A stretch of 64,000 nucleotides of DNA, taken from a virus (taxonomy: Duplodnaviria > Heunggongvirae > Uroviricota > Caudoviricetes). Shown in pieces: positions 10,015 to 40,405 of this stretch. A program made the translations under genes and the position numbers. The notes beneath the pieces were generated by a model. That model did not search any database, was not told the origin of the DNA, and worked only from the letters and a program-made list of their open reading frames with translations. The stretch lies in the IMG/VR virus record IMGVR_UViG_2703718869_000013, positions 32,001-96,000 of that record; one strand, given 5' to 3'. Every line of letters starts with the position of its first letter. Within the stretch, counting starts at the first letter, position 1.

Positions 10015-11058
10015 TTAACCTATTGCTACTGGTTTTAACAAACCAGCATCAAGTAGCTTGCGAGTTAACCACTGCTGGCCTTTACCCGTTAATTGGGGCG
10101 TCAGCCGTATCTGGTAGCCATTTTCATCATCCAGCACCACTTCTTTCACCGTGAAATACCCGGCGTTAATGTACTGCTGGCGCGGTACGTTTTTGCGCGC
10201 ACCAAAAGCCATGAGAATGCCGTTCTGGCGCAACCATGAGAAAAGGGCGTTTTGCTTAAGTCCAACGACCTTTGCAAAGTTCCCGATCAGGATTCCATTA
10301 GCCGCTGATACCCGGTCGGCAAAATCGACTTTAGGGGCTGCGGCCACCAGCTGTTGTTCCAACTGCATTTTCTGTTCTGCCAACTCGGCAGCCAGGCGTA
10401 GAGCTTCTGGTAATGTTTGGGGGATCGATGGGGTAGGGGAGTTTGCCTGCTGCAATTCTTCCAGTTTGTCGATCAGCGAACGGCGGACCGCTTTTGACTC
10501 GCGCGCGGCGACTCGCAAGGCTTGTTTGTAGGTCATGGTGATGACCTCAAAAGAGCGCCCAGCCCTTGTGCCATGGGATTTTGCACTTTTTGTGTAAAAT
10601 TCACCTTCAAGTTCATCGAGTATTTTTTCGATGAATTTATTGTTTCTAACCTCTGGTTCTCCACATAACTTGCGTGCCTCATTGACCATCTTCAACAATG
10701 TTTGGCTGTCGATTGTGTCTCCGGTGTTGGGGATGACATTCACGGCTGGTGTTGGCGTAGCTGACGTAACAGGTGCTGGTTTCTCAACATTCAAATTTTT
10801 ACCGGTCACTCTATGTGCCTCCTTTCTCATTTCTGCTGCCACCGTTGCGTAACGTAGACGTCCTTGTTCAATCAAATAATCCCTGATCTCGGCTATCAGT
10901 AGCCTGTTGATCACAGCCTTATCTGTTCGGGTATAAAAACGCCTGGTTATCATGAAATAGTTGGCAATTGCGCCGGGGATCTCCCGTGTCGGCATACAGG
11001 CAGTATGCAGGGCGATTGCTTCGGCTATGTCATTACGGGTGACGAGAGGTTTTTTCAT
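10015..11058 (-). CDS. ant: Antirepressor Ant (module A), KilAC/ANT C-terminal domain
   Basis: 347 aa; start overlaps icd stop; about 93% identical to Ant of module B by eye; C-terminal ANT domain shared with KilA. Confidence 0.8.
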   Translation of the reverse strand: MKKPLVTRNDIAEAIALHTACMPTREIPGAIANYFMITRRFYTRTDKAVINRLLIAEIRDYLIEQGRLRYATVAAEMRKEAHRVTGKNLNVEKPAPVTSATPTPAVNVIPNTGDTIDSQTLLKMVNEARKLCGEPEVRNNKFIEKILDELEGEFYTKSAKSHGTRAGRSFEVITMTYKQALRVAARESKAVRRSLIDKLEELQQANSPTPSIPQTLPEALRLAAELAEQKMQLEQQLVAAAPKVDFADRVSAANGILIGNFAKVVGLKQNALFSWLRQNGILMAFGARKNVPRQQYINAGYFTVKEVVLDDENGYQIRLTPQLTGKGQQWLTRKLLDAGLLKPVAIG

Positions 11059-11276
11059 AAAACCCCCTGAACGTCGGCAGAGAAGGGGAGGTTCCAGTAA
11101 CTAAGTGAATTGCGCGAGTTAGTTGAAAAACGGGCAGTAAAAATGCAGGGGCCATCAGGCAATTGAGAGCGTGCTTCGTCTTCTGTTGCTGCGATAACGA
11201 AGTGATAGTGGTGTTTTTTACAGGAATAGAAACGCCAGATGAATTCTTGGCGTGCGCAAGGATTGGCATTAACCAT
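11055..11276 (-). CDS. icd: Icd-like small protein (module A), translationally coupled to ant
   Basis: 73 codons, stop overlaps ant ATG; paralogous to 39144-39365, 46770-46991 and 53290-53511. Confidence 0.7.
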   Translation of the reverse strand: MVNANPCARQEFIWRFYSCKKHHYHFVIAATEDEARSQLPDGPCIFTARFSTNSRNSLSYWNLPFSADVQGVL

Positions 11277-11289
11277 AGTTACGGCCTCA

Positions 11290-11480
11290 CTAACAGGTTT
11301 AACAACCTGCTACCCGCTGTCAAACAGGTGGCAGGACGTGACAGGGTTGACAGACTGGCGTTAGTGAAACCAGCAGGCCGAAGCCTCCCCATCACGCCCC
11401 ACCATAATTCGGGCGTAACGCGGTTTACGGACACAAAAATACCGCAATATCGGAAATCTGCGGTTGTCCGCACTAACATT
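11290..11480 (-). ncRNA. c4: c4-like antisense RNA region (module A) with flanking target repeats
   Basis: Conserved structured block with GGCTTCGGCC tetraloop hairpin; motif triples TTTGACAG/CTGTCAA and GTTAGTG/CACTAAC; exact RNA ends not determinable. Confidence 0.55.
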
Positions 11481-11589
11481 CAGGCTGTCAAACCTGGTCG
11501 CAGAATTTGCTACGACGGCAGAACTATAAGCCTGAACGATTAAAAGGTCAATATGATGCGAAAAGATAGCATTCGCGACTTAAAAATAC

Positions 11590-11606
11590 AAATTTATTAG
11601 AGCATT
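11590..11606. promoter_or_regulatory. C1-operator-like site upstream of module A (Op51-like)
   Basis: 16/17 match to the operator 17-mer; adjacent TTGTGCA-ATAAA-TGCACAA palindrome. Confidence 0.6.
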
Positions 11607-11701
11607 ATTTGTGCAATAAATGCACAAATGGATCTAATAACCTCTTTTTTTTAAAGGCGAAAATATGTACCCTAAATGGGTTATAAGGCAGGTGAGATTA
11701 T

Positions 11702-11833
11702 AATGAGAAGACTATTACTACCGTTATTATTTATGGCCGGGACTGTTAATGCAGCATCAAGCGTAAAGGAGATTTGTACCGATTATACGAAATACCTTGG
11801 GCACGTTTACGCCTTTGCGATCAATGACTATTA
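11702..11833 (+). CDS. Small secreted peptide (signal peptide then 26-aa mature part)
   Basis: ATG with AGGTGAG Shine-Dalgarno; MRRLLLPLLFMAGTVNA signal-like N-terminus; below the ORF-track size cutoff. Confidence 0.4.
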
Positions 11834-11855
11834 ATCCATGCGTAGGAGTGGATTT

Positions 11856-12173
11856 ATGCTGATTCGTTTGTTTTTAGTGCTTTCCTTTTTAACATTTAAT
11901 GTTTTTGCTGATGAAGTTGACTTTTCGAAGGTAGATTGCAATTCAGTGGAAACAAGAAAAGCTCTTATTGAAGAATATAACGAAATATTATCGTCATATG
12001 GAATAACAGTGGTTGATTCTTATAATCAAAAAACTATTCAGAAAGGAATAAATAAACTGGTTTGTTATGGGGTTTACCAATATTCAGATGGCTCTTCGGA
12101 GTATGTTATTTATAAAGCATACCCAAATAGTCTTGGTGAATTGATTAGTGAGTTTAAACCGATTAATGAGTGA
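11856..12173 (+). CDS. Secreted hypothetical protein
   Basis: ATG at 11856 preceded by AGGAG; MLIRLFLVLSFLTFNVFA signal peptide; track ORF starts at upstream in-frame ATG 11838. Confidence 0.5.
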   Translation: MLIRLFLVLSFLTFNVFADEVDFSKVDCNSVETRKALIEEYNEILSSYGITVVDSYNQKTIQKGINKLVCYGVYQYSDGSSEYVIYKAYPNSLGELISEFKPINE

Positions 12174-12180
12174 ATGGAAA

Positions 12181-12960
12181 ATGAAATTATTTAATGTAAT
12201 AACATTTTGTTGTGCTATTTTTGCTGGAAGCGCGATAGCTGATAATAAATTGCCAGATTGGCTTTCTACTTCAAAAAAAGATTATGATTTAGTAAGGGTG
12301 TTCTATTTGTCTGGATTTGCCTCGAAAGCAATGAATAATCAATTTGGTTATCATTTTCCATCTGAGTTGGTTAATGATTTTAAAGATAATGAATTTGCCG
12401 CTCAGGAAAAATGGAATACAATTTCAATTGTATATGGTGAAATAAAATCCATAAGAATGGTGAATAATGAACCAATTGTAGAGTTATTTACTCCAGGGGA
12501 AAATGCAACGCCACTAAATTATATCAAATTGAAAGTGTTGGATTCAAAACAAAACTCTCTGTTAAAACTAAAAAAAGGGGATGATATATATGCAGTGTGC
12601 TCCGGTGCTAATTTTAGGTTAGTGCCAATTCTGAGCAACTGCACTCCAGCAACTGACGTCATTGATGCTGCACTCTCTTTTTCTGGTGAATATATGTTCC
12701 CTGCTTTTGATTCTTTTTCACCTACTAAGCAAAACGTCAAATATATATTCACAAATCAAGATCCTGTTCAGATGATGAATTTTATAGGGTACCTATCCTT
12801 AGTCGATACAACGAAGGATAAGAATAAAATGGATATGGTTCGTAAGTGTACGCCTTGGAAGCCGGAATGTTCACAACAATTCGTTGATGTAATGGAAGGA
12901 TTTGATAACATCATGTATAAATATGAGAGGGAATTTAAAAATTACATAGAATTAAAATAG
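12181..12960 (+). CDS. Secreted hypothetical protein (possible Sim-like superinfection exclusion, by position only)
   Basis: MKLFNVITFCCAIFAGSAIA signal peptide; AT-rich; divergent from the c4-icd-ant module; track ORF starts at 12148. Confidence 0.5.
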   Translation: MKLFNVITFCCAIFAGSAIADNKLPDWLSTSKKDYDLVRVFYLSGFASKAMNNQFGYHFPSELVNDFKDNEFAAQEKWNTISIVYGEIKSIRMVNNEPIVELFTPGENATPLNYIKLKVLDSKQNSLLKLKKGDDIYAVCSGANFRLVPILSNCTPATDVIDAALSFSGEYMFPAFDSFSPTKQNVKYIFTNQDPVQMMNFIGYLSLVDTTKDKNKMDMVRKCTPWKPECSQQFVDVMEGFDNIMYKYEREFKNYIELK

Positions 12961-12992
12961 TATTTGAAATGATAGTCAATTTAAGTTTTAAC

Positions 12993-13020
12993 AAAACGCC
13001 CATTAAAGGGCGTTTTATTG
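12993..13020 (+). terminator. Rho-independent terminator (AAAACGCCC-attaaa-GGGCGTTTT)
   Basis: Stem-loop with T-run after stop at 12960. Confidence 0.65.
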
Positions 13021-13183
13021 TTTTACTCAAAACAACCTGACTCAAAACAACCTGATTGTGTGATAACCATATGATACTCCTCATTCCATCTACACTACCT
13101 ACTCTAACTTAATGATACCATATTACTCCCGGACGGCAATATTCCCACTCAATGGACAAATGACTACTCGTAGAATCGGGTAA

Positions 13184-13774
<591 letters not shown>

Positions 13775-13784
13775 GGGGGCTGAT

Positions 13785-14396
13785 ATGGGGCTTAATGTTG
13801 CTTCAGTAAAGTCTTATGTATCTTCGGCATTAACGACGACATTATTTGGCTCCGGCGTTGGTGAGCGGGAAGTTGGTAAGCTGACGTCAATCATCATGAA
13901 CAAAATGCTGTTCGCGCAAGGATGGCAGTTCTCTGTCGAAGTTGATGGTCTGGAGGGGGCAGACTTCTTTGCTAAAGACATTACCTACCACGATTACAGC
14001 ATCGAATATGAAACGATTAAAATCGGCGGAGGGAATATCCTTCAGCCAACGGAGCGTTCGCCTGGGCAGATAACAATGATGGTCAGGGACACTGTTGATG
14101 GCCTCGTTTTGGACTGGTTTAAGACGGCAAAAAGTCGGGTGATCAATCCTGACGGTACCGGGAACATACCATCTAAATATTTGCTCAATGTGCGTATTTA
14201 TCGGTTGCTGTCTTCCGGCTTAACCAAACTGGAAAATGAGATGACGGTATTCCCGGTCACTACCGGCGATGTCACCTATGCGCGGGATCAGGTTACGGAA
14301 TTTAAGTCATTCCCAATGACCTTCGCATTGCACAGCACGTTTAACCAATCCTCAAGTTCTTTGGCTTCCCTTCTGGGCTTTAGTTTTTCTCTTTGA
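13785..14396 (+). CDS. Hypothetical tail protein (tube-like position)
   Basis: 203-aa ORF, tight spacing in operon. Confidence 0.55.
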   Translation: MGLNVASVKSYVSSALTTTLFGSGVGEREVGKLTSIIMNKMLFAQGWQFSVEVDGLEGADFFAKDITYHDYSIEYETIKIGGGNILQPTERSPGQITMMVRDTVDGLVLDWFKTAKSRVINPDGTGNIPSKYLLNVRIYRLLSSGLTKLENEMTVFPVTTGDVTYARDQVTEFKSFPMTFALHSTFNQSSSSLASLLGFSFSL

Positions 14397-14410
14397 ATTA
14401 AGGAGCAAGG

Positions 14411-15292
14411 ATGCTTTTACCCCTTTTCCCGCTACCATCGCGGCCAACTGAATTGATCCAGTTCCGTCAGCCAAATATTGCTGATGCGATGCGTTTCAAC
14501 TCGATAACACCGGAGGAACAAGAACAACAGACAACGGCATATTTAAAAGCCTTGCTGGCTGAACCCGTGAAACATGATCCCCTGACATGGACGGCGCAGG
14601 ACCGGATTACCGCGTTATGGTGGATATTTACTGGCTCCCGTGAAACACCGGTCGAGACATTCACCTACACCTGTAAACATTGCGGTAAAGAGCATTATTA
14701 CGATTGTGATATGAATGCTCTGGCTGAAGATATCCAGGTCCTGGAAGTGGAACCTTTCATTGACGATATTGAGGTGTCTGTAGAGGGAGTACCTTATCAA
14801 TGGCGTATCGTGCCGCTTGATGGTTGGGCAATGGAAATGCTGGAGATGCGCCGTGCAGCATTGCCACCTGAAGACGACGCGGAATTCAAAGAAGCGATCG
14901 TTGATTTGCGTTTTTGGGAATTCGCTTATCAGTGTGAGCTTTATAACGATGTTAGTGGTACTCGTGAAGATCAGGCTGAGCGTCGTTATGAAACGATCAA
15001 ACGGATGGCCATTGATACTGAATTTATGAAGCTGGCGGCACACATCCGGCTGGCTCATGAAAAGCTCGAACATGGTTTACCGTGCTACATCGATAAAGGC
15101 GAAATGCGTCTTCGTCTCCCGCCGCACAAATGCCCAAACCAGGATACAAAGGAGTCCACAGAGGGTGCGTACACCCGTCTGTGGGTGCCCTTTCGGGCTA
15201 CCGACTTCATTCCACAGGTGGGGATTGAAAAGCTATCAGACCTTAGTGTCCAACCTGGTTTTGTATGGGGGTATACCGATTCAGGACGCTGA
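14411..15292 (+). CDS. Hypothetical tail-region protein with Cys-rich segment
   Basis: 293-aa ORF; CKHCGKEHYYDCD motif; upstream of sit. Confidence 0.55.
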   Translation: MLLPLFPLPSRPTELIQFRQPNIADAMRFNSITPEEQEQQTTAYLKALLAEPVKHDPLTWTAQDRITALWWIFTGSRETPVETFTYTCKHCGKEHYYDCDMNALAEDIQVLEVEPFIDDIEVSVEGVPYQWRIVPLDGWAMEMLEMRRAALPPEDDAEFKEAIVDLRFWEFAYQCELYNDVSGTREDQAERRYETIKRMAIDTEFMKLAAHIRLAHEKLEHGLPCYIDKGEMRLRLPPHKCPNQDTKESTEGAYTRLWVPFRATDFIPQVGIEKLSDLSVQPGFVWGYTDSGR

Positions 15293-15373
15293 AAGGCTTA
15301 CTGAATCCTATGCGTTTTTCCTGTTGGAGAAACTGGAAGAAAAACTTAAACCGAAACGGTAGGCGATAAGATC

Positions 15374-18300
15374 ATGGAAAGAAAAAACGCCAATATTGAC
15401 GATGTTATAAGGACAGTTGAAACCGCCAGCGCGAAAGAGCTGGAAGAGCTTGCAGGTATTCGGGAAGCTGTTGAAGATTTGAAAGGGGAACGAGTTGCAA
15501 CTGTTGATCCTGTCTCTCGCAGTGTGTCGGCATTAAATCGCACAATCGAAAATTCCCGGCCAGACTTTGTGGCCAATGCGCCATCCGTGGACCCTATTGT
15601 TGAGGCAATGAAACGGCTTAATTTAGGGGACGTTTCTCGTGTAGTTCAGGAGGATGTTGCTCTAGAGGAACCGCAGGCCAAATCAACTACGCGAAAGGGT
15701 AAAAAACGACGCAAGAAGGCTATAACAGAAGATGTAAAGGCGCAACGGACCGAAGCAGCCGAACACGCTCGCGAAATGTTCGGTCAAAAAGGCGGTGCGC
15801 AAAAAAGCCAAAACCAACGCGATGCGCGTGGTCGTTTTATTGGAAAGTCAGGGAGTAAGGCCGCAGCGGAAGATGCCCGTGCTGAACGTGCTGAAAAGGC
15901 CAGGCGCAAAGAGGATGATGAGCGTCTAAATGCTGAATCAGGTTTATTAAAAAAACTGTCAAAAGTAGCTGAAGGCATAGGTAACCCTTCAGAGACTCGT
16001 GCCGTCGATGCGTTAGGTTATGCCGTTGCTGGTCCATTGTGGGCAGCAGGGAAGGAGCTTGGCGGGATATCAAAAGAAGTTGGTGGATCGCTTAATGGTG
16101 CCAGAAAGTCTATTGCCGATGTGATTCGTGGCAATGACGATAACAGCCGTAGAAAAGGTTTTTTTAGGCGTAAATCGCAAAATAGTGCCGATGTCGTTCA
16201 GATTAACACCCAAAAACGGACGGTTCAGGAACTTCAGGATCAGACCAGCGAAATTAAAGAGGGCAATGACAAGATTCTCAGCGCCCTTGATCAGATAGCC
16301 AAAAACACCGGGAAAAAGAAGGGCGGCTTGCTGTCCAAATTATTTAGCCTGTTAGGGAAGGGGGCCGGTGGTATTGCCTCCCTTATTTTTGGCCGTGGGG
16401 CACTAAAGAAAGTTGGCTCGATGGCACTCGGCGCTTTAGGTATTAAGGGGGTAGGGAAACTAGGGATTAAGGCGGTCGCAAAAGGCGCTTTACGTGCAAT
16501 TCCGCTAGTCGGCACGGTGGCTGGAGGTATCTATGATGCGGTAACCGGTTGGAATGATATAGAAGCGCAACGCCGAGCGTTTGGGCTTAAATCAGGACAA
16601 GATCCATCATTCCAGCAAAAAGCCGCTTATACGTTAGCTAATGTTCTTGATATGGGGGGACTGGTATCTGGTATTAGCAGCGCCATTGGTGAGGTTCTCA
16701 AATCACTTGGATTTGAGGATATCGGCAATATGTTGCAATCATTTTCGACGGAAAGTATTGCCCAGGCCATTGATAGCGGGGTTACCAACTTAGAAACATA
16801 TATTTCTAATCTTGGCGACACCATTTCTACCAAGTTCGATGATTATACAGCAAAGATTGGTGATGCTATTTCTGCATGGTTCAGTGACACCACAAAGAAT
16901 CTGAACGAAAAATTAGACGCCATCAAAAACTTCTTTACTGTCGATAACCTGAAACAGGTTTTCAGTGATGCAATTGATAGTGCAATTGATTTCATTAAGA
17001 ATCCTGGGAAATACATTAAAGAGGCTGGCAGTAATCTATGGAGTGCCGCAAAAGAGCTTTCAGGTGAGGTTGCAGATGCCGCTGTTCAGAGCACCCCTGT
17101 GGCCTGGGTTGCATCAAAGCTAGTCAACAAAGCGGATGCGAAAGAGGTTACACCTGAATTAAAAACACCAGCTAAAGAAAGTCAGGAGGACAATGCTCCT
17201 AAGACTGAATATACCCCTAAAAAGGCTAATATTGTCACTCGTGTTGTAAATGCATCCCTAGATACGGCGAAAGATAGCAATAAAACAGTTAAAGAAACTG
17301 CCAATCAGATTATCAATGCAAATGCCGTAGAAACGGGCAATCGCGCGTTGCAGAAAATTGATAATGCTATTGGTCAAAATAGCTCATCATCATCGTCGCT
17401 TAATACTACTGGCACCAGGAATGACATTCAGAAAGCTGCGGATACCTACAACAATGGCAACTTAGATGTAAAAGTCGGAAGCCTTGGCGCTGAAGGTAAG
17501 GCAAATCTCGATAAGTTGGCTCCGTATTTTGCTGAACTAGAGAATAAATATGGCCTTCCTGAAGGTACTCTTTACGCGATCGCTGCAACTGAATCTGGTG
17601 GTGATCCTAACGCAAAATCTACGCTTACAAGATCACCAAATGGAAAGCTAAGTGGTGGCGCTCTCGGAATGTTCCAGTTTACGAGCGTTGCTCGTGAGGA
17701 AACTGGATTATCCCGGGAAGATTCTTTTAATCCGGAAAAATCGGCAGAAGCTGCGGCTCTTCTCATGAGCAAGTATCTGAAGCAAGCCAATGGAGACTTA
17801 AACGAGGCCATCACTGCATATAACGCTGGGTTTGGCACTATCAATAAGTGGAAAAAAGGCACAGGTGACTTATCGAAAGAAAACCGTGAGTACGCGATCA
17901 AGGTCAATACTCATCGTGCTCGCTATTTGGGTGGTGAAATCTATACACCTGGAGCAGGAGCACAGGGTGGGGCGCAATATGGAGTGAGGGGACCACTGCC
18001 TGATAACGCCGTTATCGATCAGTCTACTGGCCTGGCGTTTACCCCTGGTGATAGCCCGTTTGAGAAAGGCGGTCTGGTAGACAAAATCGGCAATGCTGTT
18101 GGCGTTAACGATCTGGTCAACAAATTCATGAATGGCCGGGGGATGCGTCGGGAAGTCGTTCAGGGAACCCTCGAAGAACGTGCACGAGGAAGGGGAACCG
18201 CAACGGCAGCTGGCAATGTGTATGTTGATACACCTATGCCAGTTGAAGAGGCACGTCCGGTAGCAAACAACTCAAGTTACTTTGACCAACTCGGTGCACA

Positions 18301-21841: not shown

Positions 21842-21852
21842 GGATATGCTTG

Positions 21853-24702: not shown

Positions 24703-25280
24703 TGACATTCAGAATGAGTGAACAATCACGGACCATAAAAATTTATAATCTACTGGCTGGAACCAATGAGTTTATTGGTGAAGGTGATGCATACATTCCA
24801 CCTCATACAGGTCTGCCTGCAAACAGTACCGATATTGCCCCGCCAGATATTCCGGCTGGCTTCGTGGCCGTTTTCAACAGTGATGAGGCATCGTGGAATC
24901 TCGTTGAAGACCATCGGGGAAAAACCGTCTATGACGTGGCTTCCGGCGACGCGTTATTTATTTCTGAACTTGGCCCATTACCGGAAAATGTCACCTGGTT
25001 ATCCCCGGAAGGGGAGTTTCAGAAGTGGAACGGCACAGCCTGGGTGAAAGATGCAGAAGCAGAAAAACTGTTCCGGATCCGGAAGGCGGAAGAAACAAAA
25101 AACAGCCTGATGCAGATGGCCAGTGAGCATATTGCGCCACTTCAGGATGCCGTAGATTTGGATATTGCGACGGAGGAAGAGGCATCGTTACTGACTGCAT
25201 GGAAGACATATCGGGTATTGTTGAATCGTGTTGATACAACAGTAGCATCGGATGTTGAGTGGCCAGTCGCCCCGCAATAA
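24702..25280 (+). CDS. Tail fiber assembly chaperone (U/Tfa family)
   Basis: 192 aa; start overlaps tail fiber stop; U/Tfa-type sequence as recalled. Confidence 0.8.
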
Positions 25281-25323: not shown

Positions 25324-25896
25324 CTATTTATACAATACAACACCGCTCTTTTTTGTTATATATGTGCAGTTCGATGGTATATCTTTATTTATAAAAGACA
25401 TTGCACCTATTTTTACATTATCCCCAATTTTACGTGATAATCCAATGATGCAACAATTAGCTCCGATATCAACGTTATTACCAATTTTTACTCTTGAACC
25501 AGGCATGTCACCATCTACCTGTCCAATGGTAGTATTCTGTCGCAAAACCAGATTTTCACCAGCATCAACAGCAAAATGAACAACAATTCCAGTATGATGG
25601 GGAATTGTTAAACCTTTTCCAATATTTGCGCCCAATCCAATTTCGCAACCAAATCTGTTAATTATATTATTGTTTAACTTTCTGGCTGCTTTCTTATGTA
25701 ATTTATTGCCATTAATATACATTTCATTAGCCAGTCTCCACCAGAAAAGGAAATTCCGATTGCGCTGCTTCTTCTCTCTTAATAGTCGCCAAACATCCAT
25801 TTTTTCACGCCTGATGATTTCAGCCATCCAGTAGCTCAATAGAGCTTTTGAATTCCCGAAGATGACAAAGTGAATAGCTATTAAGTAACATAACAT
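25324..25896 (-). CDS. Hexapeptide-repeat O-acetyltransferase (serine/sugar acetyltransferase-like)
   Basis: Left-handed beta-helix hexapeptide repeats (IGLGANIGKGLTIPHHTGIVV, IGNNVDIGANCCIIG, IGDNVKIGAMS); AT-rich gene; start codon choice uncertain. Confidence 0.75.
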   Translation of the reverse strand: MLCYLIAIHFVIFGNSKALLSYWMAEIIRREKMDVWRLLREKKQRNRNFLFWWRLANEMYINGNKLHKKAARKLNNNIINRFGCEIGLGANIGKGLTIPHHTGIVVHFAVDAGENLVLRQNTTIGQVDGDMPGSRVKIGNNVDIGANCCIIGLSRKIGDNVKIGAMSFINKDIPSNCTYITKKSGVVLYK

Positions 25897-30293: not shown

Positions 30294-31625
30294 CATCCTC
30301 CACGCCCCGAAGGGCGTGGATTCCTGCTACGTTCAGGCTGTCGCCTGAATCATTTCGGTGGGTTCCTGCTTCAACGGGCGGCCTGACTGCACCATCCCTC
30401 CACAGGCAAGTACGGCGTGTCCCGCCGCTAAAATGTTACGAGCGCCGTTTACATCGGCGTTCGCTGTATATCCACATACCTGGCATCTGAATTTACTTTG
30501 TGACAGGCGATTTTCTTTCGCTGTATGACCACAGCACGCGCAACGCTGGCTTGTGTACGCTGGCGGAACAGCAAGCACCTGACCGCCACGCCAGAGCTGC
30601 TTGTACTCAAGCTGGCGGCGCATTTCATACCAGCCCTGATCCAGTATCGAACGGTTTAAACCTGATTTTGCCCGGACATTGCGACCCGGATGACTTATCG
30701 TTCCCGCCGCTGACTTTGACATGTATTTAACCTTCAAATCCTCAATGACAATCATTGCGTGGTTTTTGCTGATGATCGTTGTGACTTTATGAAGGTAGTC
30801 TCTGCGGATATTTGCGATACGAAAATGCAGTCGCTGTATTTTGCGTTTCTGCTTCTGCCAGTTGTTGCTGAATTTGACCTTGCGGCTTAACTGTCGCTGA
30901 AGTCTCGCCAGCTTCTTCTGGTTTTTCTGAAAACTGTTTACAGGCTCAAAGACTGTGCCATCTGACAGCGTGGCGAGTTTAGCCACGCCAGCATCCAGCC
31001 CGATCATTGATGCTGAAGGGTGAACCGGAGTGGATATTTCACTTTCTGTCTGAATACTGATGTACCACTTACCGCAGGACTGGCTGACAGTGACATTTTT
31101 CACAACTCCCGTGACCTGACGGCTATTCCGGTAGCGCATCCAGCCCAGTTTCGGCAGAAAAATACGGCTGTTTTCCTGATCGAGCTTAACGCCCTGCGGG
31201 TAGCGAAATGCATCATTCTGTCCCCGCTTTTTGAATCGGGGAAAAGCAGCCCGATTCTGGAAGAAGTTTTTGTAAGCCCGCTCAAGGTCTTTCAGTGACT
31301 GTTGCAATGGCTGTGAGGGAGAATCTATAAGCCATTCGGTTTCAGTGTCTTTTTTCCACTCAACCAACCAGGAAGCCATTTTCGTGTAAGGGATGTATTT
31401 TTTACCGGCCTCATGATTCTCATTCTGAAGCGCCAGAGCACGGTTGAAAACGAAACGACAAGCTCCGGCAAAGTGCCTCATTTGACACTCCTGTTGACCA
31501 TCTGGTTTTAACCGGAATTTGAATGACACCTGTTGTTTCATGTCACTATTTTAAGCAAAAATAGCCGGGAGGAAAACTGTGCCTTATATCCCCACTATGA
31601 GGAGCGTAGGGGGCGGCACATTGGA
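30294..31625 (-). mobile_element. TnpB-only IS200/IS605-family element (approximate ends)
   Basis: Single tnpB gene, no tnpA; perfect hairpin CCACGCCC-cgaa-GGGCGTGG at about 30300-30319 next to the tnpB 3' end; imperfect hairpin near the other end; element ends are inferred. Confidence 0.6.
30333..31541 (-). CDS. tnpB: TnpB (RuvC-like, zinc-ribbon) transposon-associated nuclease
   Basis: 402 aa; C-terminal CACCGH..C..CGY zinc-ribbon and RuvC-like segments typical of OrfB/TnpB. Confidence 0.85.
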
Positions 31626-31640
31626 TAAGGCGTAACAGGG

Positions 31641-34628
31641 ATGAGCTTAAGCGATCAGGTGGTAATGGCCACCAGCATAGAAACGCTGATCGAGCTGCTA
31701 AAGAACCTGCCCGATTATGGGCGGGTTTCGTATGTGGTGACAGCGAAGGGAGACGAGGTAAAAACAGCGTTTGATATCGTCGATGCCTCAGTTCTTTTGG
31801 TATCCAATACTCTGGATGGGAAAATTAATCCAGACTATCCCCAGGAACTTCAGCCGCGCGACCGGACCCGCGCATCCAGCCTTCTTCAGGTTAACCAGAT
31901 ATCCAAAGATTTGCGGCCTGCTCAGCTTACCGATTCCGGTTTATCCAGCCATGGCGCGCCGATAATTGGTGAGGACAATGCCGTTGAGTCAGGTAATGGA
32001 CGGACCATGGGGATCATCAAAGCCTATCAGGACGGCAATGCGGATCGGTATCGTGAGTACCTGATTGATCATGCGACCGAATTCGGCATACGACCTGAAA
32101 AGGTTGAATCAATGACGGCTCCGGTACTGGTGCGCCGCCGGTTAACTAAGGTTGACCGCGTTCAGTTTGCCAAGGACTCAAATATTTCTGATCTTCAGGA
32201 AATGGCAGCCAGTGAAAAGGCTTTTGTTGATGCCGACAGCATAACACCGGCGATGATGGCGCTTTTTAACCCGTCAGAAAGCGGAGATCTGCTTAGCCGC
32301 AGTAATGACGCGTTTATTCGCGGATTTATGACGCAAGTTGGTGCCACACAGGCGGCTGGCCTTGTAACTGAAGATGGGCGACCAACACGGCAACTTGTTG
32401 ACCGTATACAAAACGCGATCTTTGCCAAGGCATATAAGGATGCGCGCCTGGTAAGGATGGTTGCAGAAGAACCTGATCCGGATATGCGTAATGTTCTGAC
32501 GGCGCTTAATGCGGCAGCCAATGATTTTGTCCAGATGCAGGCTTTATCAGGAGAAGCGCACAAGCAGGCTGTGACAACTATTGTTGATGGCATTGAGACA
32601 GCGGATAGCCTCGATAAAAAGGCGCTGGCGGCATTGAAAGATGCGGTAGACCTGGTAAGGCAATCGAAGGAGTCAGGCCAGCATATTACCGATGTTATTG
32701 CTCAGGGGGATATGTTCAGCGAAACGGCCCCGGAAGTGAAAGCACTCGCGTTGTTCATCGTCGCGAATAACCGTAGCGCGAAGCGTATGGCCACCGCCTT
32801 TAAGTTGATGGCGCAACGTATCAATGATGAGTTACAGCACCAGGGCCAGGCGCTCGGGGATATGTTTGGCGGCGGCGATGTGTCGTTACAGGATATCCTT
32901 CGCCAAGTATCTCAGGAACTGGAAAACGAAGGTATGCAAGGGATATCTGGCGGTCTTTTCGAGTCAGCTTCTGGCGGTAGTTACAACGGTGTTGCTCCAT
33001 ATACCAGCTTGCTATTACATCGGGCATCCGGCATCAAAGACATTATTCATCTGATCAGGCTGCTTTCCCGTACAGATCCCCAGGATGAACAGCTTGTTCA
33101 AGTGCTTGCGCATTTTGTTCGAATGCCTGTTGCCGACGTGAAAAAATGGTGCCGATTATTCGGTATCAGCAATTCGTTACTTCGCGGCTTGTTAAATCAC
33201 GCATCCTCCCTTGGGCGCGATGGCTTTGACGAGATAGCGCAGGCGATAAAAAACGGAGATATGCCACCAGCTATTGACTGGTTTTCCATTCGCCCAACCA
33301 GGGTGAAAGCATTCCTTAGCGCGGCGCATTCGGCATCACCATTGGCAGAAATGGTTCAGAGGTTATCGCTCATATTCACAGACCATACCGCGTTGGGTGA
33401 TCTGACTCTGGACGAGATGAAAGAAGCCTCCATTCAGTGGGCCGATCAACAAAATGAGGTTAACTCAGACTTCTTGCCAGCATTCAGGAAGGCCGTTAGT
33501 AAAGCGGATGATGCCCGTGGAATTCTGAAGGCATTTAAGGCATTGCAAAGTCGGGTTAATAAACATGTCGGTGATATCGATGGGGTAACGGCGGAAGGCA
33601 GGGATATCCTTAAAGAGCACGGCATAACGCCAGAGTTTATTGATGAGATCAGGACGGATATGCAGCGTGAGGTCGTATCGTCCCTGCAAATTGTAGTCAG
33701 AGCGTTGGCGGATGCTAATCCGAAGAGTGCGGCCATTGTTAACCGGGTTATTGGTGATATTGAAGCATCGGAGGGCATGGGGGCGCTGAAACACTTCCTT
33801 TCGCGAGCGTTTAATCCTAACGGCAATATTCTCCCCGGCATTATTGGTGAGGCTAAAAAGTATGTCAGCGAAGAAGAACTTGAGCATCTTGACCAACTAC
33901 TTAAGCGATTCTCATATAACCCGCAGACACGCTGGCAAATGAATCAGCGAAGTATGGGTTCGGTCCACGAGAAAGTGTTATCCGCCATGAACAGTGCGAT
34001 CGCCAACTCATCCGTATCTGAAGAAAAAGCTCTTGAGTGGGCCGACTCTTTTATCACGGAAGAAGTGGAAGAAGCCCGCGCTGGACAGAATGGTGGGATA
34101 GACCTGCGCAAGGAACTTGCTGATATTTATCGCCTGACCGGCGGTAAAATTTCGACCTTATCAAAGGTGGTTCACCACCAGGGAAGGGCATATGCAAATC
34201 TTAATGGTGTTGTTGCTGTCAATTTGAACGATGAAAATGCAAGTGCACTGTGGCACGAGCTGGGTCATCATCTTGAGTACAGTAACCCAGGTTTGTTAGA
34301 GAAAGCCCGGTCATTCCTGAAGGCCAATGTTGAAGGGGATAAGCCATCTTTCGTCAATATCGGTGGGCGTGGCAAGCCTGAATGGTGCTTCAGATCTCGA
34401 TTGAGTAATATTTATATGGCGAAGGTATACCCGCCAGCCTCAGTAAGTAACACCGGGAAAATTCGGCAGAAATCACCGACTATTTCCAAAACGTCAGCAA
34501 CGGAAGTATTCTCTATGGCTCTTCAGTTGTATCATGGCAAAGAGGCCGCTGCCGCATCACTGATGAATGGTGACGGATTGCTGGAACTGTTATTAGGTGT
34601 GGCAAAGGAGCTAAATAATGCAGATTAA
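31641..34628 (+). CDS. Large hypothetical protein (DdrB position in Dar-like operon)
   Basis: 995-aa ORF; by position and size only. Confidence 0.45.
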   Translation: MSLSDQVVMATSIETLIELLKNLPDYGRVSYVVTAKGDEVKTAFDIVDASVLLVSNTLDGKINPDYPQELQPRDRTRASSLLQVNQISKDLRPAQLTDSGLSSHGAPIIGEDNAVESGNGRTMGIIKAYQDGNADRYREYLIDHATEFGIRPEKVESMTAPVLVRRRLTKVDRVQFAKDSNISDLQEMAASEKAFVDADSITPAMMALFNPSESGDLLSRSNDAFIRGFMTQVGATQAAGLVTEDGRPTRQLVDRIQNAIFAKAYKDARLVRMVAEEPDPDMRNVLTALNAAANDFVQMQALSGEAHKQAVTTIVDGIETADSLDKKALAALKDAVDLVRQSKESGQHITDVIAQGDMFSETAPEVKALALFIVANNRSAKRMATAFKLMAQRINDELQHQGQALGDMFGGGDVSLQDILRQVSQELENEGMQGISGGLFESASGGSYNGVAPYTSLLLHRASGIKDIIHLIRLLSRTDPQDEQLVQVLAHFVRMPVADVKKWCRLFGISNSLLRGLLNHASSLGRDGFDEIAQAIKNGDMPPAIDWFSIRPTRVKAFLSAAHSASPLAEMVQRLSLIFTDHTALGDLTLDEMKEASIQWADQQNEVNSDFLPAFRKAVSKADDARGILKAFKALQSRVNKHVGDIDGVTAEGRDILKEHGITPEFIDEIRTDMQREVVSSLQIVVRALADANPKSAAIVNRVIGDIEASEGMGALKHFLSRAFNPNGNILPGIIGEAKKYVSEEELEHLDQLLKRFSYNPQTRWQMNQRSMGSVHEKVLSAMNSAIANSSVSEEKALEWADSFITEEVEEARAGQNGGIDLRKELADIYRLTGGKISTLSKVVHHQGRAYANLNGVVAVNLNDENASALWHELGHHLEYSNPGLLEKARSFLKANVEGDKPSFVNIGGRGKPEWCFRSRLSNIYMAKVYPPASVSNTGKIRQKSPTISKTSATEVFSMALQLYHGKEAAAASLMNGDGLLELLLGVAKELNNAD

Positions 34629-35112: not shown

Positions 35113-35141
35113 CTCTTTGTTAGCTATAGCTTTAAACAAAT

Positions 35142-35429
35142 TTAGTTTTGAGGCAATGCAACAAAAGTCAGCTCTTGATCTTTGATTAATGCTTTTGTTT
35201 GTTTGGATGTAATTCCCACTTTAGTTTTTACATCATTGTGGAGCTTCTTATACGCTTTTATTTCATCTGCTGTATATCGGAAGCCATTTGCACTGTTACT
35301 GGACAGTTGAAGTGCGATTACGTCATCACTGACACCCGCATCGCTTAGCTTAGCTATGCGGGTAATAGTGTGGCCTGCGCGAGTGTTTGTGGTGGATATT
35401 TTGTCTAAGAAATTGTTCAGTTTTTCCAT
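35142..35429 (-). CDS. Hypothetical protein
   Basis: 95-aa ORF with ATG start; no motif recognised. Confidence 0.5.
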   Translation of the reverse strand: MEKLNNFLDKISTTNTRAGHTITRIAKLSDAGVSDDVIALQLSSNSANGFRYTADEIKAYKKLHNDVKTKVGITSKQTKALIKDQELTFVALPQN

Positions 35430-35647
35430 TGTTTACAACCTCTTACTTGAGTTTATTGCCAGTAGAATTGCCACTATTCTTTTGCCTCAACGAATCACAA
35501 TGTACTGGAATAAGAAACTATGAGCAATACTTACGCTTTGCGAATACAGAAGATGAATAATCAACTTATTACTAAAATGTTAATAATATTATTCTGTTAC
35601 ATAGTGTTCGCTATAACAATCGGGAGTTGAATGCTAATTCAATAAAT

Positions 35648-35677
35648 AAAGAACCCGCCAATTGGCGGGTTCTTTTT
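35648..35677. terminator. Bidirectional-type terminator (AAAGAACCCGCC-aatt-GGCGGGTTCTTTTT)
   Basis: Perfect stem flanked by A-run and T-run. Confidence 0.7.
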
Positions 35678-36458: not shown

Positions 36459-36464
36459 GTTAAA

Positions 36465-37142
36465 TCACTCCACTACAAACCAGTCACATGCCAGTAAGTC
36501 GCCTACAGAAGGAACCCACGGAACAACTACACCTTGTGCATTTTTTAAGGCGAAATAAGCACCATACGGAACGAGGTCGCCGGGGAAATATCCCTTAATG
36601 GCTTCCATTCGTGCCGGGTACTGTCCTTCAGGAACCAGCCAGCAGAATTGGTTTTCGCCGTTCCACCCGCGTCGGGCAACTTTCTTGCCATCCTTCAGCC
36701 ACATCAGCGCGTCAGAAAAGTCGGCTGCTTCAAGGTCGATTTCTTCTTGTAGAGTAGCGATACCGCCAGCAGAAATAGTTACGTCCCTGGCTGTAATGAA
36801 TGTCACCCCATTGTGACCTTCAATGCTGAGCGATACCCCATTTTCGAAGAAGTCGTTAGTCCGACTAAAGCCTTCTTCAAATGTTTTTTCTGGCGAATAG
36901 GACAGAGATCCGTCCTCATAAGCGACCAGATATCCGCCAATTTCTGGTCGGTGTTTTTGCAAAAATATTTTATCAACATGGACTTTTACCCCTTCTGGCT
37001 CAACGACTTCGATGTTGCAAAAAAGGACCACATCCATTAGGGCGATAATTTCGATATCTTTGATTTTTGAGGCGCGAACTGTTTTATGGCTTTTGTATTT
37101 TGGAAGTGCCGTCAAAAGCTCTTTCGTTGTCATGTTATTCAT
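36465..37142 (-). CDS. Hypothetical protein with C-terminal DUF2829-like (Tad2-type) domain
   Basis: C-terminal FSDALMWLKDGKKVARRGWNGENQF...DWFVVE matches the DUF2829 pattern as recalled; N-terminal 130 aa unassigned. Confidence 0.5.
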   Translation of the reverse strand: MNNMTTKELLTALPKYKSHKTVRASKIKDIEIIALMDVVLFCNIEVVEPEGVKVHVDKIFLQKHRPEIGGYLVAYEDGSLSYSPEKTFEEGFSRTNDFFENGVSLSIEGHNGVTFITARDVTISAGGIATLQEEIDLEAADFSDALMWLKDGKKVARRGWNGENQFCWLVPEGQYPARMEAIKGYFPGDLVPYGAYFALKNAQGVVVPWVPSVGDLLACDWFVVE

Positions 37143-37339
37143 AGTCTTTCCTCTGCTTAAAACCTGATGTATTGCGCCTTCAGGTGGGTCAGGAATGTTT
37201 TCCCACCAGCGAACGCAATATCTCGGGGTGTTCTATTCGTTAAAAGCGCGTGCCATTGCCAACTTTGGCGTTTTTGAGCGAGTTCGTGCTTTTGTCGGCG
37301 TCTGGACCACCGCTTTTTTTTCAGTCGTTTTTTACACAT

Positions 37340-37828
37340 TCAAAACGGAATATCGTCGTCAAAGTCCATTGGAGGTTCGTTATTAGCGTTGCTCTGAGGT
37401 TTACCGCCACCACTGTATTGCTGGTGGTTTTGAGGTTGGTTTGATTGCCCCCAGCCATTTGTGGACTGTGAATCGTCGCGACGAGCGCCGATCATTTGCA
37501 TGGTGCCGCCCTGGCTGACGATAATTTCCGTCGTGTAACGTTCTACACCGGCGTCATCTGTCCACTTACGGGTTTTAAGTTTCCCTTCGATGTAGACCTG
37601 AGAACCTTTTCGTAAATACTCACTCGCAATTTCAGCAAGTTTTCCGAACAAAACGACTTTATGCCATTCTGTTTGCTCTTTCTGTTGGCCCGTTTGCTTG
37701 TCGCGCCATGATTCATTCGTTGCGATGCTGAGTCTTCCGACCGCTCCGCCATTTGGTATATACCTGATCTCCGGGTCTTGCCCCAGGGTACCAATCAGGA
37801 TGACTTTGTTTACACCGCGTTGTGCCAC
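37340..37828 (-). CDS. ssb: Single-stranded DNA-binding protein
   Basis: OB-fold SSB sequence with Gly/Gln-rich linker and acidic DDDIPF tail. Confidence 0.95.
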
Positions 37829-37846
37829 TTATCTTACCTAATAAAA

Positions 37847-37863
37847 TAAATTAATTAGAGCAA
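37847..37863. promoter_or_regulatory. C1-operator-like site between ssb and lyz
   Basis: 16/17 match to the operator 17-mer. Confidence 0.55.
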
Positions 37864-37886
37864 TAATGTATATCTTTGAAACGTAG

Positions 37887-37910
37887 CTAACAAGTGATTT
37901 GCATTATCCT
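37887..37910 (+). promoter_or_regulatory. Late-promoter-like motif upstream of lyz (CTAACAAGTGATTTGCATTATCCT)
   Basis: Shares ACAAGTGA(C/T)TT core with the motif upstream of the head gene. Confidence 0.45.
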
Positions 37911-37997
37911 GTGCCTTCTAAAGGGATCGAGTCAGTCGGTATTGGCTGTGAATGGGTGTTTGTCCTGGAGCGTAAAAAATTCGCTTATGAGGTCTTT

Positions 37998-38555
37998 ATG
38001 AAGGGAAAAACAGCCGCAGGAGGCGGTGCAATTTGCGCTATCGCGATGATGATTACCATCGTGATGGATAATGGCAATGTGCGAACCAACCAGGCGGGGC
38101 TTGAGCTTATCGGAAACGCTGAAGGTTGCCGACGTGATCCATACAAGTGCCCGGCGGGTGTATGGACCGACGGGATCGGTAATACACACGGGGTAACGCC
38201 TGGCGTGCGAAAAACCGACCAGCAAATCGCCGCTGATTGGGAAAAGAATATCCTGATCGCTGAACGCTGTATTAACCAGCACTTCCGGGGCAAAGACATG
38301 CCCGATAATGCCTTCAGCGCAATGACAAGCGCGGCATTCAATATGGGATGCAATAGTTTACGGACCTACTACAGCAAAGCGCGAGGCATGCGAGTCGAAA
38401 CGTCCATCCACAAGTGGGCGCAGAAAGGGGAATGGGTGAATATGTGTAACCATCTCCCTGATTTTGTGAACAGTAACGGCGTCCCCCTGCCCGGGTTAAA
38501 GATTCGCCGTGAAGAAGAACGCCAGCTTTGCCTGACGGGGCTTGTCAATGAATAA
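37998..38555 (+). CDS. lyz: SAR endolysin (T4-lysozyme-like, signal-anchor-release type)
   Basis: N-terminal Gly/Ala-rich weakly hydrophobic segment followed by lysozyme catalytic region, as in P1 Lyz; internal ATG at 37998 gives the 185-aa product, track start 37899 rejected. Confidence 0.9.
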   Translation: MKGKTAAGGGAICAIAMMITIVMDNGNVRTNQAGLELIGNAEGCRRDPYKCPAGVWTDGIGNTHGVTPGVRKTDQQIAADWEKNILIAERCINQHFRGKDMPDNAFSAMTSAAFNMGCNSLRTYYSKARGMRVETSIHKWAQKGEWVNMCNHLPDFVNSNGVPLPGLKIRREEERQLCLTGLVNE

Positions 38556-38799
38556 ACTCCGGCAGCTCCGCCGACTTTCGACAATGAAGTTATCGCTGGC
38601 GGCGATAGTTTTTGACTCGATTTTCATGGCGGTATATGTGCTCAATGAGACGTGGCCACTGGAACCACTATTATATGCCGGGCTTCGGCTGTGCCTGACA
38701 TTTTTGAGCATGGCTGCAAGATTGATGCAGCAGAAAGAAACCGCTTCAGATTGCCCACGTCGCGCGGTGCGCAAATATATGGCACGCAGGCGAAGATGA
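38542..38799 (+). CDS. Small membrane protein with basic C-terminus (holin/antiholin-like topology)
   Basis: 85-aa ORF overlapping lyz stop; two hydrophobic segments and RKYMARRRR tail; may be spurious. Confidence 0.35.
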   Translation: MSMNKLRQLRRLSTMKLSLAAIVFDSIFMAVYVLNETWPLEPLLYAGLRLCLTFLSMAARLMQQKETASDCPRRAVRKYMARRRR

Positions 38800-38809
38800 T
38801 TTAACCATT

Positions 38810-38843
38810 ATTGCTCTAATAAATTTGATTTATTAGAGCAAAT
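38810..38843. promoter_or_regulatory. Tandem inverted C1 operators (ATTGCTCTAATAAATTT / GATTTATTAGAGCAAAT) upstream of module B
   Basis: First half is a 17/17 match to the operator 17-mer, second half 15/17 in inverted orientation. Confidence 0.75.
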
Positions 38844-38924
38844 AACCTACCATCGAACACGGCTCTATTGATCTCATCGTCGTTCAGGCTTATAGTTCCA
38901 CCGTCGTAGCAAATTCTGCGACCA

Positions 38925-39125
38925 GGTTTGACAGCCTGAATACTTGTGCGGACAACCGCAGATTTCCGATATTGCGGTATTTTTGTGTCCGTAAAACCGC
39001 GTTACGCCCGAATTATGGTGGGGCGTGATGGGGAGGCTTCGGCCTGCTGGTTTCACAAGTGCCAGTCTGTCAACCCTGTCACGTCCTGCCACCTGTTTGA
39101 CAGCGGGTAGCAGGTTGTTAATTCA
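38925..39125 (+). ncRNA. c4: c4-like antisense RNA region (module B) with flanking target repeats
   Basis: Triples GTTTGACAG / CTGTCAACC / GTTTGACAG and ACTTGTG / CACAAGT / ACTTGTGAGG; GGCTTCGGCC hairpin; downstream target overlaps the icd Shine-Dalgarno. Confidence 0.6.
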
Positions 39126-39143
39126 ACTTGTGAGGCCGTAACT

Positions 39144-39365
39144 ATGGTTAATGCCAATCCTTGCGCACGCCAAGAATTCATCTGGCGTTTCTATTCCTGT
39201 AAAAAACACCACTATCACTTCGTTATCGCAGCAACTGAAGACGAAGCACGCTCTCAATTGCCTGATGGCCCCTGCATTTTTACTGCCCGTTTTTCAACTA
39301 ACTCGCGCAATTCACTTAGTTACTGGAGCCTCCCCTTCTCTGCCGACGTTCAGGGGGGTTTATGA
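39144..39365 (+). CDS. icd: Icd-like small protein (module B)
   Basis: 73 codons; stop overlaps ant ATG (ATGA). Confidence 0.75.
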   Translation: MVNANPCARQEFIWRFYSCKKHHYHFVIAATEDEARSQLPDGPCIFTARFSTNSRNSLSYWSLPFSADVQGGL

Positions 39366-40405
39366 AAAAACCTCTCGTCACCCGTAATGACATAGCCGAA
39401 GCGATCGCCCTGCATACTGCCTGTATGCCGACACGGGAGATCCCCGGCGCAATTGCCAACTATTTCATGATAACCAGGCGTTTTTATACCCGAACAGATA
39501 AGGCTGTGATCAACAGGCTACTGATAGCCGAGATCAGGGATTATTTGATTGAACAAGGACGTCTACGTTACGCAACGGTGGCAGCAGAAATGAGAAAGGA
39601 GGCACATAGAATGACCAGTAATAATTTGAATGTTAAAAAACCAGCATCTGTTGCTTCAGCTACGCCATCACCAGCTGTGAATGTTATCTCCAACACTGGA
39701 GATACAATCGACAGCCAGACGCTGTTAAAGATGGTTAATGAGGCGCGCAAGCTATGTGGGGAAAATGAGATCCGCAATAACGATTTTCTCAATAGAATTA
39801 AGGATGAACTTGATGGGGAATTTTACGAAACTTTCGTAAAATCCCATGGCACAAGGGCCGGGCGCTCTTTTGAGGTCATAACCATGACCTACAAACAAGC
39901 CCTGCGAGTCGCCGCGCGCGAGTCAAAAGCGGTCCGCCGTTCGCTGATCGACAAACTGGAAGAATTGCAGCAGGCAAACTCCCCTACCCCATCGATCCCC
40001 CAAACATTACCAGAAGCCCTACGTCTGGCTGCCGAGTTAGCAGAACAGAAAATGCAGTTGGAACAACAGCTGGTGGCCGCAGCCCCTAAAGTCGATTTTG
40101 CTGACCGGGTATCAGCGGCTAATGGAATCCTGATCGGGAACTTTGCAAAGGTCGTTGGACTTAAGCAAAACGCCCTTTTCTCATGGTTGCGCCAGAACGG
40201 CATTCTCATGGCTTTTGGTGCGCGCAAAAACGTACCGCGCCAGCAATACATCAACGCCGGGTATTTCACGGTGAAAGAAGTGGTGCTGGATGATGAAGAT
40301 GGTTACCAGATACGGCTGACGCCCCAATTAACGGGTAAAGGCCAGCAGTGGTTGACGCGTAAACTGCTCGATGCAGGTTTATTAAAGCCTGTAGCGGCTG
40401 AGTGA
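39362..40405 (+). CDS. ant: Antirepressor Ant (module B)
   Basis: 347 aa; ANT/KilAC C-terminal domain; translational coupling to icd. Confidence 0.8.
   Translation: MKKPLVTRNDIAEAIALHTACMPTREIPGAIANYFMITRRFYTRTDKAVINRLLIAEIRDYLIEQGRLRYATVAAEMRKEAHRMTSNNLNVKKPASVASATPSPAVNVISNTGDTIDSQTLLKMVNEARKLCGENEIRNNDFLNRIKDELDGEFYETFVKSHGTRAGRSFEVITMTYKQALRVAARESKAVRRSLIDKLEELQQANSPTPSIPQTLPEALRLAAELAEQKMQLEQQLVAAAPKVDFADRVSAANGILIGNFAKVVGLKQNALFSWLRQNGILMAFGARKNVPRQQYINAGYFTVKEVVLDDEDGYQIRLTPQLTGKGQQWLTRKLLDAGLLKPVAAE

Follow-up and report, generated by a model that had tools for sequence, protein, structure and literature searches.

The immI system of phage P1 (Oc4/Op51, P51a/b, a1, b1, c4, a2, b2, icd and ant1/ant2) and its counterpart in P7 work by a textbook mechanism, and the heteroimmunity of the two phages resides in the a' and b' loops of the C4 RNA and in their targets, consistent with the annotations of the records. 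In P22 (immI, sar/ant) and N15 (antA-C with CB RNA), a small RNA likewise restrains an antirepressor in the lysogen. Here we analysed a stretch of 64,000 nucleotides (positions 32,001 to 96,000 of IMG/VR record IMGVR_UViG_2703718869_000013; hereafter the window), which, judged by its sequence, is part of a P1-like plasmid prophage collinear with P1 in gene order. A sequence-only reading of the window had described two inverted repeats, modules A and B, as a source of genome isomers. These repeats are two of four complete immI-type cassettes in one genome. That reading missed the main point, namely that they are paralogous, presumably functional immunity cassettes whose few differences fall on the RNA specificity determinants.

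Module A is the orthologue of P1 immI: its a and b sites are those of P1, it too is flanked by sim and kilA-repL, and its region is 98.4% identical to P1 across repL, kilA, ant1/2, icd, c4 and sim. Modules B and C match the whole P1 architecture. However, P1 has one cassette and the window element has four, the b specificity of module B (ACTTGTG in the targets, CACAAGU in the loop) is present in neither P1 nor P7, and cassette B lies between lydE and pro, two genes that no intergenic space separates in P1. P7, the classical heteroimmune partner of P1, differs from it in a'/b', likewise with compensatory changes in the loop and the four target sites, and module C uses the P7 a site. The P1 and P7 types sit in separate phages, whereas heteroimmune types are found here together in one genome, with A and B differing in b only. 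The P22 and N15 systems use different RNA families and are single copy per genome, unlike the four copies of the window. Module D is similar to isrK-orf45-anrP of Salmonella Gifsy-1 in its order of isrK leader, C4-family RNA, short open reading frame (ORF) and antirepressor, but it is preceded by a C1 operator and belongs to a P1-like plasmid prophage. In Gifsy-1, the antirepressor is translationally coupled to the ORF upstream of it, under the control of RNA pairing, and the role described for IsrK is activation in trans (PMC4825925). Additional copies of these genes have been mentioned in passing: an extra ant or icd-ant between pacB and c1 in RCS47 and pTZ20_1P and in RD-1 of pSvP1 (PMC6906374), and a second c4-icd in a D6-like plasmid (PMC6799933). 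The literature searched held no description of arrays with mutually distinct a/b types, of a B-site cassette or a CAAGT b type, or of inversion between cassettes.

The four cassettes are located at sim/kilA (A), lydE/pro (B), mat/cre (C) and pacB/c1 (D). Alignment to the annotated P1 and P7 immI regions identified in each of them a C1 operator, promoter elements, an a1/b1 leader, c4, a2/b2, icd and ant. The C1 operator (ATTGCTCTAATAAATTT, 0-2 mismatches) was present at the head of every cassette, and the window contains nine such sites in total against 0.04 expected. The C4 antisense RNA (Rfam RF01695) was detected in all four modules (68.6-75.9 bits, gathering score 45). The a1/b1 target motif RF03163 matched modules A and B; the sites of module C were found by sequence, and those of module D lie within an isrK-like leader, with b1 one mismatch short. 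The a'/b' loops are perfectly complementary to a2/b2 in A, B and C, and complementary with G-U pairs in D. In 4/4 cassettes icd (73 aa) overlaps the start of ant by 4 nt, and a nested ant2 start is present at codon 84 (GTG in A; ATG in B, C and D). AntA and AntB harbour the KilAC domain only, AntC and AntD ORF6N plus KilAC. The features of the four modules are as follows.

9996-11553, minus strand: repeat arm A, a canonical P1 immI cassette (leader, c4, icd, ant1/2) adjoining kilA and repL, 98% identical to P1 immI
11590-11606, minus strand: C1 operator (Oc4/Op51) of module A, by alignment and motif scan
11485-11491 and 11471-11477, minus strand: target sites a1 and b1 of module A, by RF03163
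11324-11409, minus strand: C4 RNA of module A, P1 type, with b' CACUAAC at 11360-11366 and a' CUGUCAA at 11347-11353 (RF01695, 68.8 bits)
11317-11323 and 11288-11294, minus strand: a2 and b2 of module A, just upstream of the icd start, by alignment
11055-11276, minus strand: icd of module A, encoding 73 aa and sharing 4 nt with the start of ant1
10015-11058, minus strand: ant1 of module A, 347 aa, KilAC, with the ant2 start GTG at 10809, by alignment and domain search
10810-11016, minus strand: longest A/B identical run, 207 bp, ant codons 15-83; B copy at 39404-39610
11554-38865, unstranded: segment between the A and B arms (sim, tail, dar, ssb, lyz, lydD/E), 27.3 kb, collinear with P1
38796-40448, plus strand: cassette B insertion, 1653 bp replacing 19 bp of P1 (20066-20084), by alignment at the P1 lydE/pro junction
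38866-40424, plus strand: repeat arm B, within the inserted cassette 38796-40448, by repeat scan and alignment
38810-38826, plus strand, and 38827-38843, minus strand: two-part C1 operator of module B, the second site inverted, by motif scan
38890-38948, plus strand: leader of module B, with a1 at 38928-38934 and b1 (ACTTGTG) at 38942-38948 (RF03163, 57.1 bits)
39011-39096, plus strand: C4 RNA of module B, with b' CACAAGU at 39054-39060 and a' CUGUCAA at 39067-39073 (68.6 bits)
39097-39103 and 39126-39132, plus strand: a2 and b2 (ACTTGTG) of module B, by alignment
39144-39365, plus strand: icd of module B, by ORF and alignment
39362-40405, plus strand: ant1 of module B, 347 aa, with the ant2 start ATG at 39611, by alignment
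46436-48111, plus strand: module C between mat and cre, by repeat scan, Rfam and domains; operator 46436-46452, c4 46637-46722 (b' CAUGUAC, a' CUGCUAA), icd 46770-46991, ant 46988-48100 (ORF6N and KilAC)
52164-53846, minus strand: module D between c1 and pacB, by repeat scan, Rfam and domains; operator 53830-53846, isrK-like leader 53678-53755, c4 53566-53653, icd 53290-53511, ant 52175-53293 (ORF6N and KilAC)
50556-50589, plus strand: loxP, the sole copy in the window, within the C-D interval

Cassette B is inserted between lydE and the terminator shared with pro, and residues 84-160 of AntB are unlike those of all other Ants compared. Module C is chimeric, its leader and c4 being 87% like those of A/B and its icd-ant 89-93% like that of D. 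The leader of module D (53678-53755, minus strand) matches Rfam isrK with 60.8 bits and contains a1/b1-like sites followed by a terminator-like hairpin, which suggests that the IsrK RNA of Gifsy-1 is an element of the same type as the a1/b1 leader of P1. The C1 operators also vary in form: module B has two overlapping inverted sites (38810-38843), module C one intact site and a degenerate second one (46436-46470), and A and D a single site each. Control by C1 may therefore not be alike in all cassettes.

The repeats themselves were as the sequence-only reading had described them. The repeat scan placed the A and B inverted arms at 9996-11426 and 38994-40424 (1431 nt, 93%), with an extension into 11424-11553 and 38866-38995 (130 nt, 92%) and a spacing of 27.3 kb, and the pairwise alignment agreed (1530 columns, 93.7% identity, 1 gap). 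Repeats of 1.5 kb at this identity cannot have arisen by chance. The estimate, made by eye, that the minus-strand Ant A and the plus-strand Ant B were about 93% identical was matched by a measured 93% over 347 aa, and the near-identity proposed for the icd and c4 regions was also borne out (3/218 nt differ in icd, 15/260 nt in the leader/c4). The arms do bracket tail and lysis genes, since simB/C, tail genes, dar, ssb and lyz were all found between them. The second inverted pair, C (plus) and D (minus) around cre-loxP-coi-c1, is real too, with arms at 46797-47419 and 52862-53484 (623 nt, 93%) and at 47543-48111 and 52164-52732 (569 nt, 92%); the C vs D alignment had 1315 columns, 89% identity and a longest identical run of 175 bp. 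The limits given for this pair, 46436 and 53846, fall on the C1 operators heading modules C and D. The repeat proper is confined to icd and ant, since C and D differ in the subtype of their c4/leader part. Between the two modules lie cre (48702-49733) and c1 (51291-52142), together with loxP and coi.

The a and b sequences of the four modules were as follows.

Module A: a TTGACAG, b GTTAGTG; P1 type
Module B: a TTGACAG, as in P1, b ACTTGTG (loop CACAAGU); new b, rare
Module C: a TTAGCAG, as in P7, b GTACATG; P7 a with a new b
Module D: a ATTGGYC, b GTCTAAGG; a different C4 subtype, isrK-led

The loop, the leader sites and the ribosome-binding-site targets change together in 4/4 modules, the a'/b' changes being mirrored in a1, b1, a2 and b2. 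The 260-nt regulatory region has 15 positions that differ between A and B, and nine of them fall within the 21 nt of b1, b' and b2 (binomial P = 5e-7). These nine are distributed three per element and are mutually compensatory, and three further differences abut b2. Folding of the whole C4 RNA against the whole target gave uninformative energies; computed duplexes of a single loop with a single site were used instead. The energies were -21 to -24 kcal/mol for the own target and -6 to -14 kcal/mol for the target of another cassette, and the experimentally heteroimmune P1 x P7 pair gave a predicted -9 to -12 kcal/mol. Because every cassette differs from the others in its a/b combination and carries targets that match it, we infer that the four switches are largely non-cross-reacting, each C4 presumably repressing only its own ant.

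The reading we favour, with a probability of roughly 0.72, is that the window element carries four paralogous, largely independent immI-type switches, that the A-B and C-D similarity reflects ancestry and a conserved core, and that inversion happens rarely, as a by-product. If the analogy with P1 and P7 holds, the a'/b' loops of each C4 would pair with a2/b2 of their own transcript and would block translation of icd and hence expression of ant. In that case a lysogen would shut off any incoming relative whose cassette is of one of its four types, while a phage infecting a lysogen would express whichever Ant is left uncovered by the resident C4 RNAs. The similarity of A to B and of C to D would come from common ancestry and from a strongly conserved stretch covering icd and the N-terminal part of ant1. 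This stretch may act as a recombination zone between cassettes, producing mosaics in which RNA recognition regions are reassorted with Ant domains. Since the crossover zone lies downstream of c4 and of all the targets, each C4 would stay matched and the recombinants would be functional. Exchange between the inverted A and B would occasionally flip the 27-kb block.

Next, we analysed the cassettes of other genomes. Scanning IMG/VR with an exact pattern in which the loops were masked gave 110 stretches, which with the window and one plasmid amounted to 115 c4 genes. Five b types (CAATC, CTAAC, TTCGT, TGTAC and CAAGT) and two a types (CT and TC) were found in nine combinations, and the covariation of targets with loops was perfect in every parsed target set. 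At least five cassette sites exist across genomes and types move between sites: the E. coli plasmid p08_4358-1 (NZ_CP074905.1), the closest closed relative, carries a cassette of P7 type at A and one of P1 type at B, and four different types were seen at the B site of other genomes. The B-site cassette was present at the same place in 15/761 E. coli complete genomes and in 11 PLSDB plasmids. The conserved 3' end of ant occurred 1031 times in 677 E. coli complete genomes (median 1, maximum 5 per genome). In the window, the KilAC part of kilA (9063-9463) is a fifth, distant copy of this 3' end, 62-69% identical to A and too diverged for homologous exchange. In near relatives of the window (e.g. 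GCA_020382455.1; 99.8-99.9% over 10-13 kb), a 344-aa Ant of the A/B family is found at the D site, in place of the 372-aa ORF6N Ant of the window. Cassettes at one site are thus replaced between near-identical plasmids.

Segment-wise comparison revealed that cassettes across genomes are mosaics with break points around icd and ant1. The c4 region of module B has one difference from that of cassette L086 (on IMG/VR contig IMGVR_UViG_2534681832_000025), while at its KilAC end AntB most resembles the B-site cassette of p08_4358-1. In all genomes compared, icd and the N-terminus of ant1 are nearly invariant. No genome-specific signal of gene conversion between A and B was seen in the window, where 4/467 nt differ in icd and the ant1 N-terminus and P7 is equally near, with 5 differences. 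These data bear on the possibility that B is a recent duplicate of A (and D of C), redundant and raising Ant dosage. The 93% identity and the same gene order and length would fit such a copy. However, A and B are as far apart (92.9% identity) as P1 and P7 (92.8%), and B is therefore not a recent copy of A; the different nearest relatives of its c4 and KilAC parts, the compensatory b1/b'/b2 differences and the four types found at the B site elsewhere argue in the same direction. Recent duplication is contradicted by the divergence and by the segment-wise comparison and was rejected; we regard it as very improbable.

Even less credible is that the repeat in the window is itself an artefact of a draft contig. 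Positions 4015-17058 of the window are 100% identical to a draft contig (LPWX01000068.1 of GCA_001607105.1; 97,126 bp), which is in favour of an artefact. Against this, closed p08_4358-1 has the same layout as the window and the closed E. albertii plasmid pEA18_2 likewise has cassettes at B, C and D. Moreover, the copies differ in sequence, and the gene order follows that of P1.

The sequence-only reading had further claimed that homologous recombination between A and B would invert the intervening segment, that C/D would act in the same way, and that the repeats carry a risk of misassembly. The identity is adequate for recombination: the longest identical A/B runs are 207, 143, 115 and 106 bp, with nine runs of at least 50 bp, and RecA-dependent exchange in E. 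coli has a minimum of about 25 bp. We queried databases with chimeric sequences of the inverted isomers (kilA, repeat and reversed lyz; mat, module C and reversed c1), counting as positive a record that spanned 80% or more of the junction. Of the sequences with any match to the A/B query, 787 in PLSDB and 759 complete E. coli genomes, none held the inverted junction, and the roughly 21 distinct closed records with a B-site cassette among them were all in the canonical orientation. The inverted C/D junction was absent from the 827 PLSDB records with any match, and the AntC (13 contigs) and AntD (26 contigs) neighbourhoods that we read were all canonical. The substrate for isomers thus stood, as 207-bp (A/B) and 175-bp (C/D) identical runs, and for A/B a recombinant joint was seen in one draft contig (see below); isomers as a common state did not, for either pair. 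Since the standard orientation predominates, inversion would be a rare by-product and not a designed switch.

A stronger alternative holds that the repeats are mainly a recombination substrate and that lysogens are mixtures of two (or four) isomers through RecA-dependent flip-flop of the 27-kb and 4-5-kb blocks. The long identical runs and the recombinant joint with one switch inside the 207-bp run favour it, and no operon seems to cross either repeat, hence both isomers would be viable. In the plastid and herpesvirus flip-flop systems, in rrn inversions and in the P1 Cin/C-segment, inverted repeats likewise flank a block that can be inverted without breaking genes. In those systems, however, the repeats show little or no divergence and either isomer is easy to observe, in contrast to the 93% identity, the one orientation in closed genomes and the lack of an invertase or crossover sites here. 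Divergence of 7% would invite suppression of recombination by mismatch repair, and frequent neutral inversion predicts either orientation among lineages 3-5% diverged, against the canonical orientation of all the closed B-site records and all the AntC and AntD contigs. We consider such a mixture unlikely. Site-specific inversion (Cin/Hin or Cre/lox) was also considered and rejected: a hexapeptide-transferase-like ORF stands where cin would be, loxP is present only once, and the repeat ends are cassette boundaries.

The exact AntB protein was looked up and 24 contigs were read; 9/10 neighbourhoods shown were canonical. The exception was contig ABCYRX010000023.1 of GCA_020315155.1 (L123; 55433-68476; 94 kb), which has a hybrid cassette in the order A-site upstream flank (sit, tail genes, sim), P1-type c4, icd, exact AntB and pro-prt. 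Where A and B differ, L123 follows A as far as window position 11017 and B at 159 consecutive sites from 10809, which places a single switch inside the 207-bp identical run. L123 is exactly the predicted A x B recombinant joint, but a short-read assembler that followed the alternative path across the collapsed repeat would yield an identical contig. The circle would be self-consistent in both cases, and L123 is either a real inversion or a path choice of the assembler. Look-ups of the reciprocal junction through exact Lyz (2014 blocks) and IcdB (12,581 blocks) returned only canonical neighbourhoods, these proteins being too common.

The second recombinant joint is on the IMG/VR contig that carries L086. 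Here the A-site upstream flank is joined through a cassette to c1, in a 45.5-kb circle closed at loxP that has no kilA, repL, head genes or plasmid replicon; a sister contig ends inside the 5' part of icd/ant, and the junction was found in 0/822 PLSDB records. This joint is most likely a mis-join in the icd/ant stretch, and the warning of misassembly was apt. We give roughly even odds to the explanation that both joints are assembler path switches in icd/ant1 and that no recombination within a genome has actually been observed. The switch of L123 coincides with the longest identical run, the very place at which a de Bruijn graph collapses, and recombinant joints occurred in draft assemblies only, never in closed ones; together with the replicon-free circle and its sister contig, this speaks for an assembly origin. 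On the other side, the repeat is resolved in the canonical way in about 19 further drafts that have the same AntB, so that assemblers are usually right, and the mosaics across genomes show natural exchange in the icd/ant1 stretch.

Several observations weigh against four largely independent switches with rare inversion. The A x B cross duplex is predicted at -14 kcal/mol, stronger than P1 x P7, and the a site is common to A and B, so that the two may partly cross-repress; A and B are probably, but not certainly, independent. The independence of the cassettes stands as a prediction, and AntC and AntD, with their ORF6N domain, are putative C1 antagonists. The c4 types were distinct in 12/12 genomes with at least two typed c4 genes, which speaks for the four switches, but the naive P = 0.009 ignores the association of types with sites. 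Finally, given the inverted joint of L123, inversion may be commoner in populations than consensus assemblies reveal. Our results partly support the interpretation of the sequence-only reading, with inversion between cassettes as a rare or unproven event and the assembly hazard as genuine.

A broader and tentative proposal, which we hold as somewhat doubtful, is that P1-like phage-plasmids carry arrays of up to five interchangeable cassettes written in an a x b RNA code and kept non-redundant, a combinatorial immunity/anti-immunity barcode used when related phage-plasmids compete, with icd/ant1 as the shuffling point at which RNA addresses are newly combined with Ant effector domains. It would cover at least five b types, two a types and the isrK-led subtype, as well as moves of cassettes and occasional inversion or deletion between them. 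P1-like phage-plasmids, which carry resistance genes, occur commonly in E. coli, E. albertii and Salmonella, and immunity specificity decides which of them can live side by side, keep each other out or induce each other. Should every additional c4-icd-ant cassette bring a further immunity type, the set of cassettes could be read directly from sequence and would predict cross-immunity networks and prophage induction triggered by superinfection. As 1.3-1.6-kb repeats with 175-207-bp identical cores, in direct and inverted orientation, the cassettes also make both draft mis-joins and real rearrangements possible; structural calls across cassette sites need spanning reads.

With regard to the rest of the element, the flanks of module B match P1 ssb-lyz and pro-prt, and the C-D region matches P1-like mat, cre, c1 and pacB. 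The exact AntA protein has no record outside LPWX01000068.1, and the window probably stems from a draft assembled from short reads. No Cin invertase was seen in the window, and the ORF at the P1 cin position (25324-25896, minus strand) is hexapeptide-acetyltransferase-like, under the Pfam cut-off. The tail-fibre C segment may not be invertible in this element. An Rfam IS009 RNA match (192 bits) was found at 25045-25243. A TnpB of the IS605 family (30333-31541, minus strand; OrfB_IS605 with a Cas12f-like TNB domain) is inserted between darA-region genes and ddrB. At 43300-45500, an AraC-family helix-turn-helix gene (43801-44535, minus strand) and an EAL-domain gene (44788-45477, plus strand) replace P1 res/mod/darB; relatives carry type III restriction-modification, SIR2 or HipA genes near this position.

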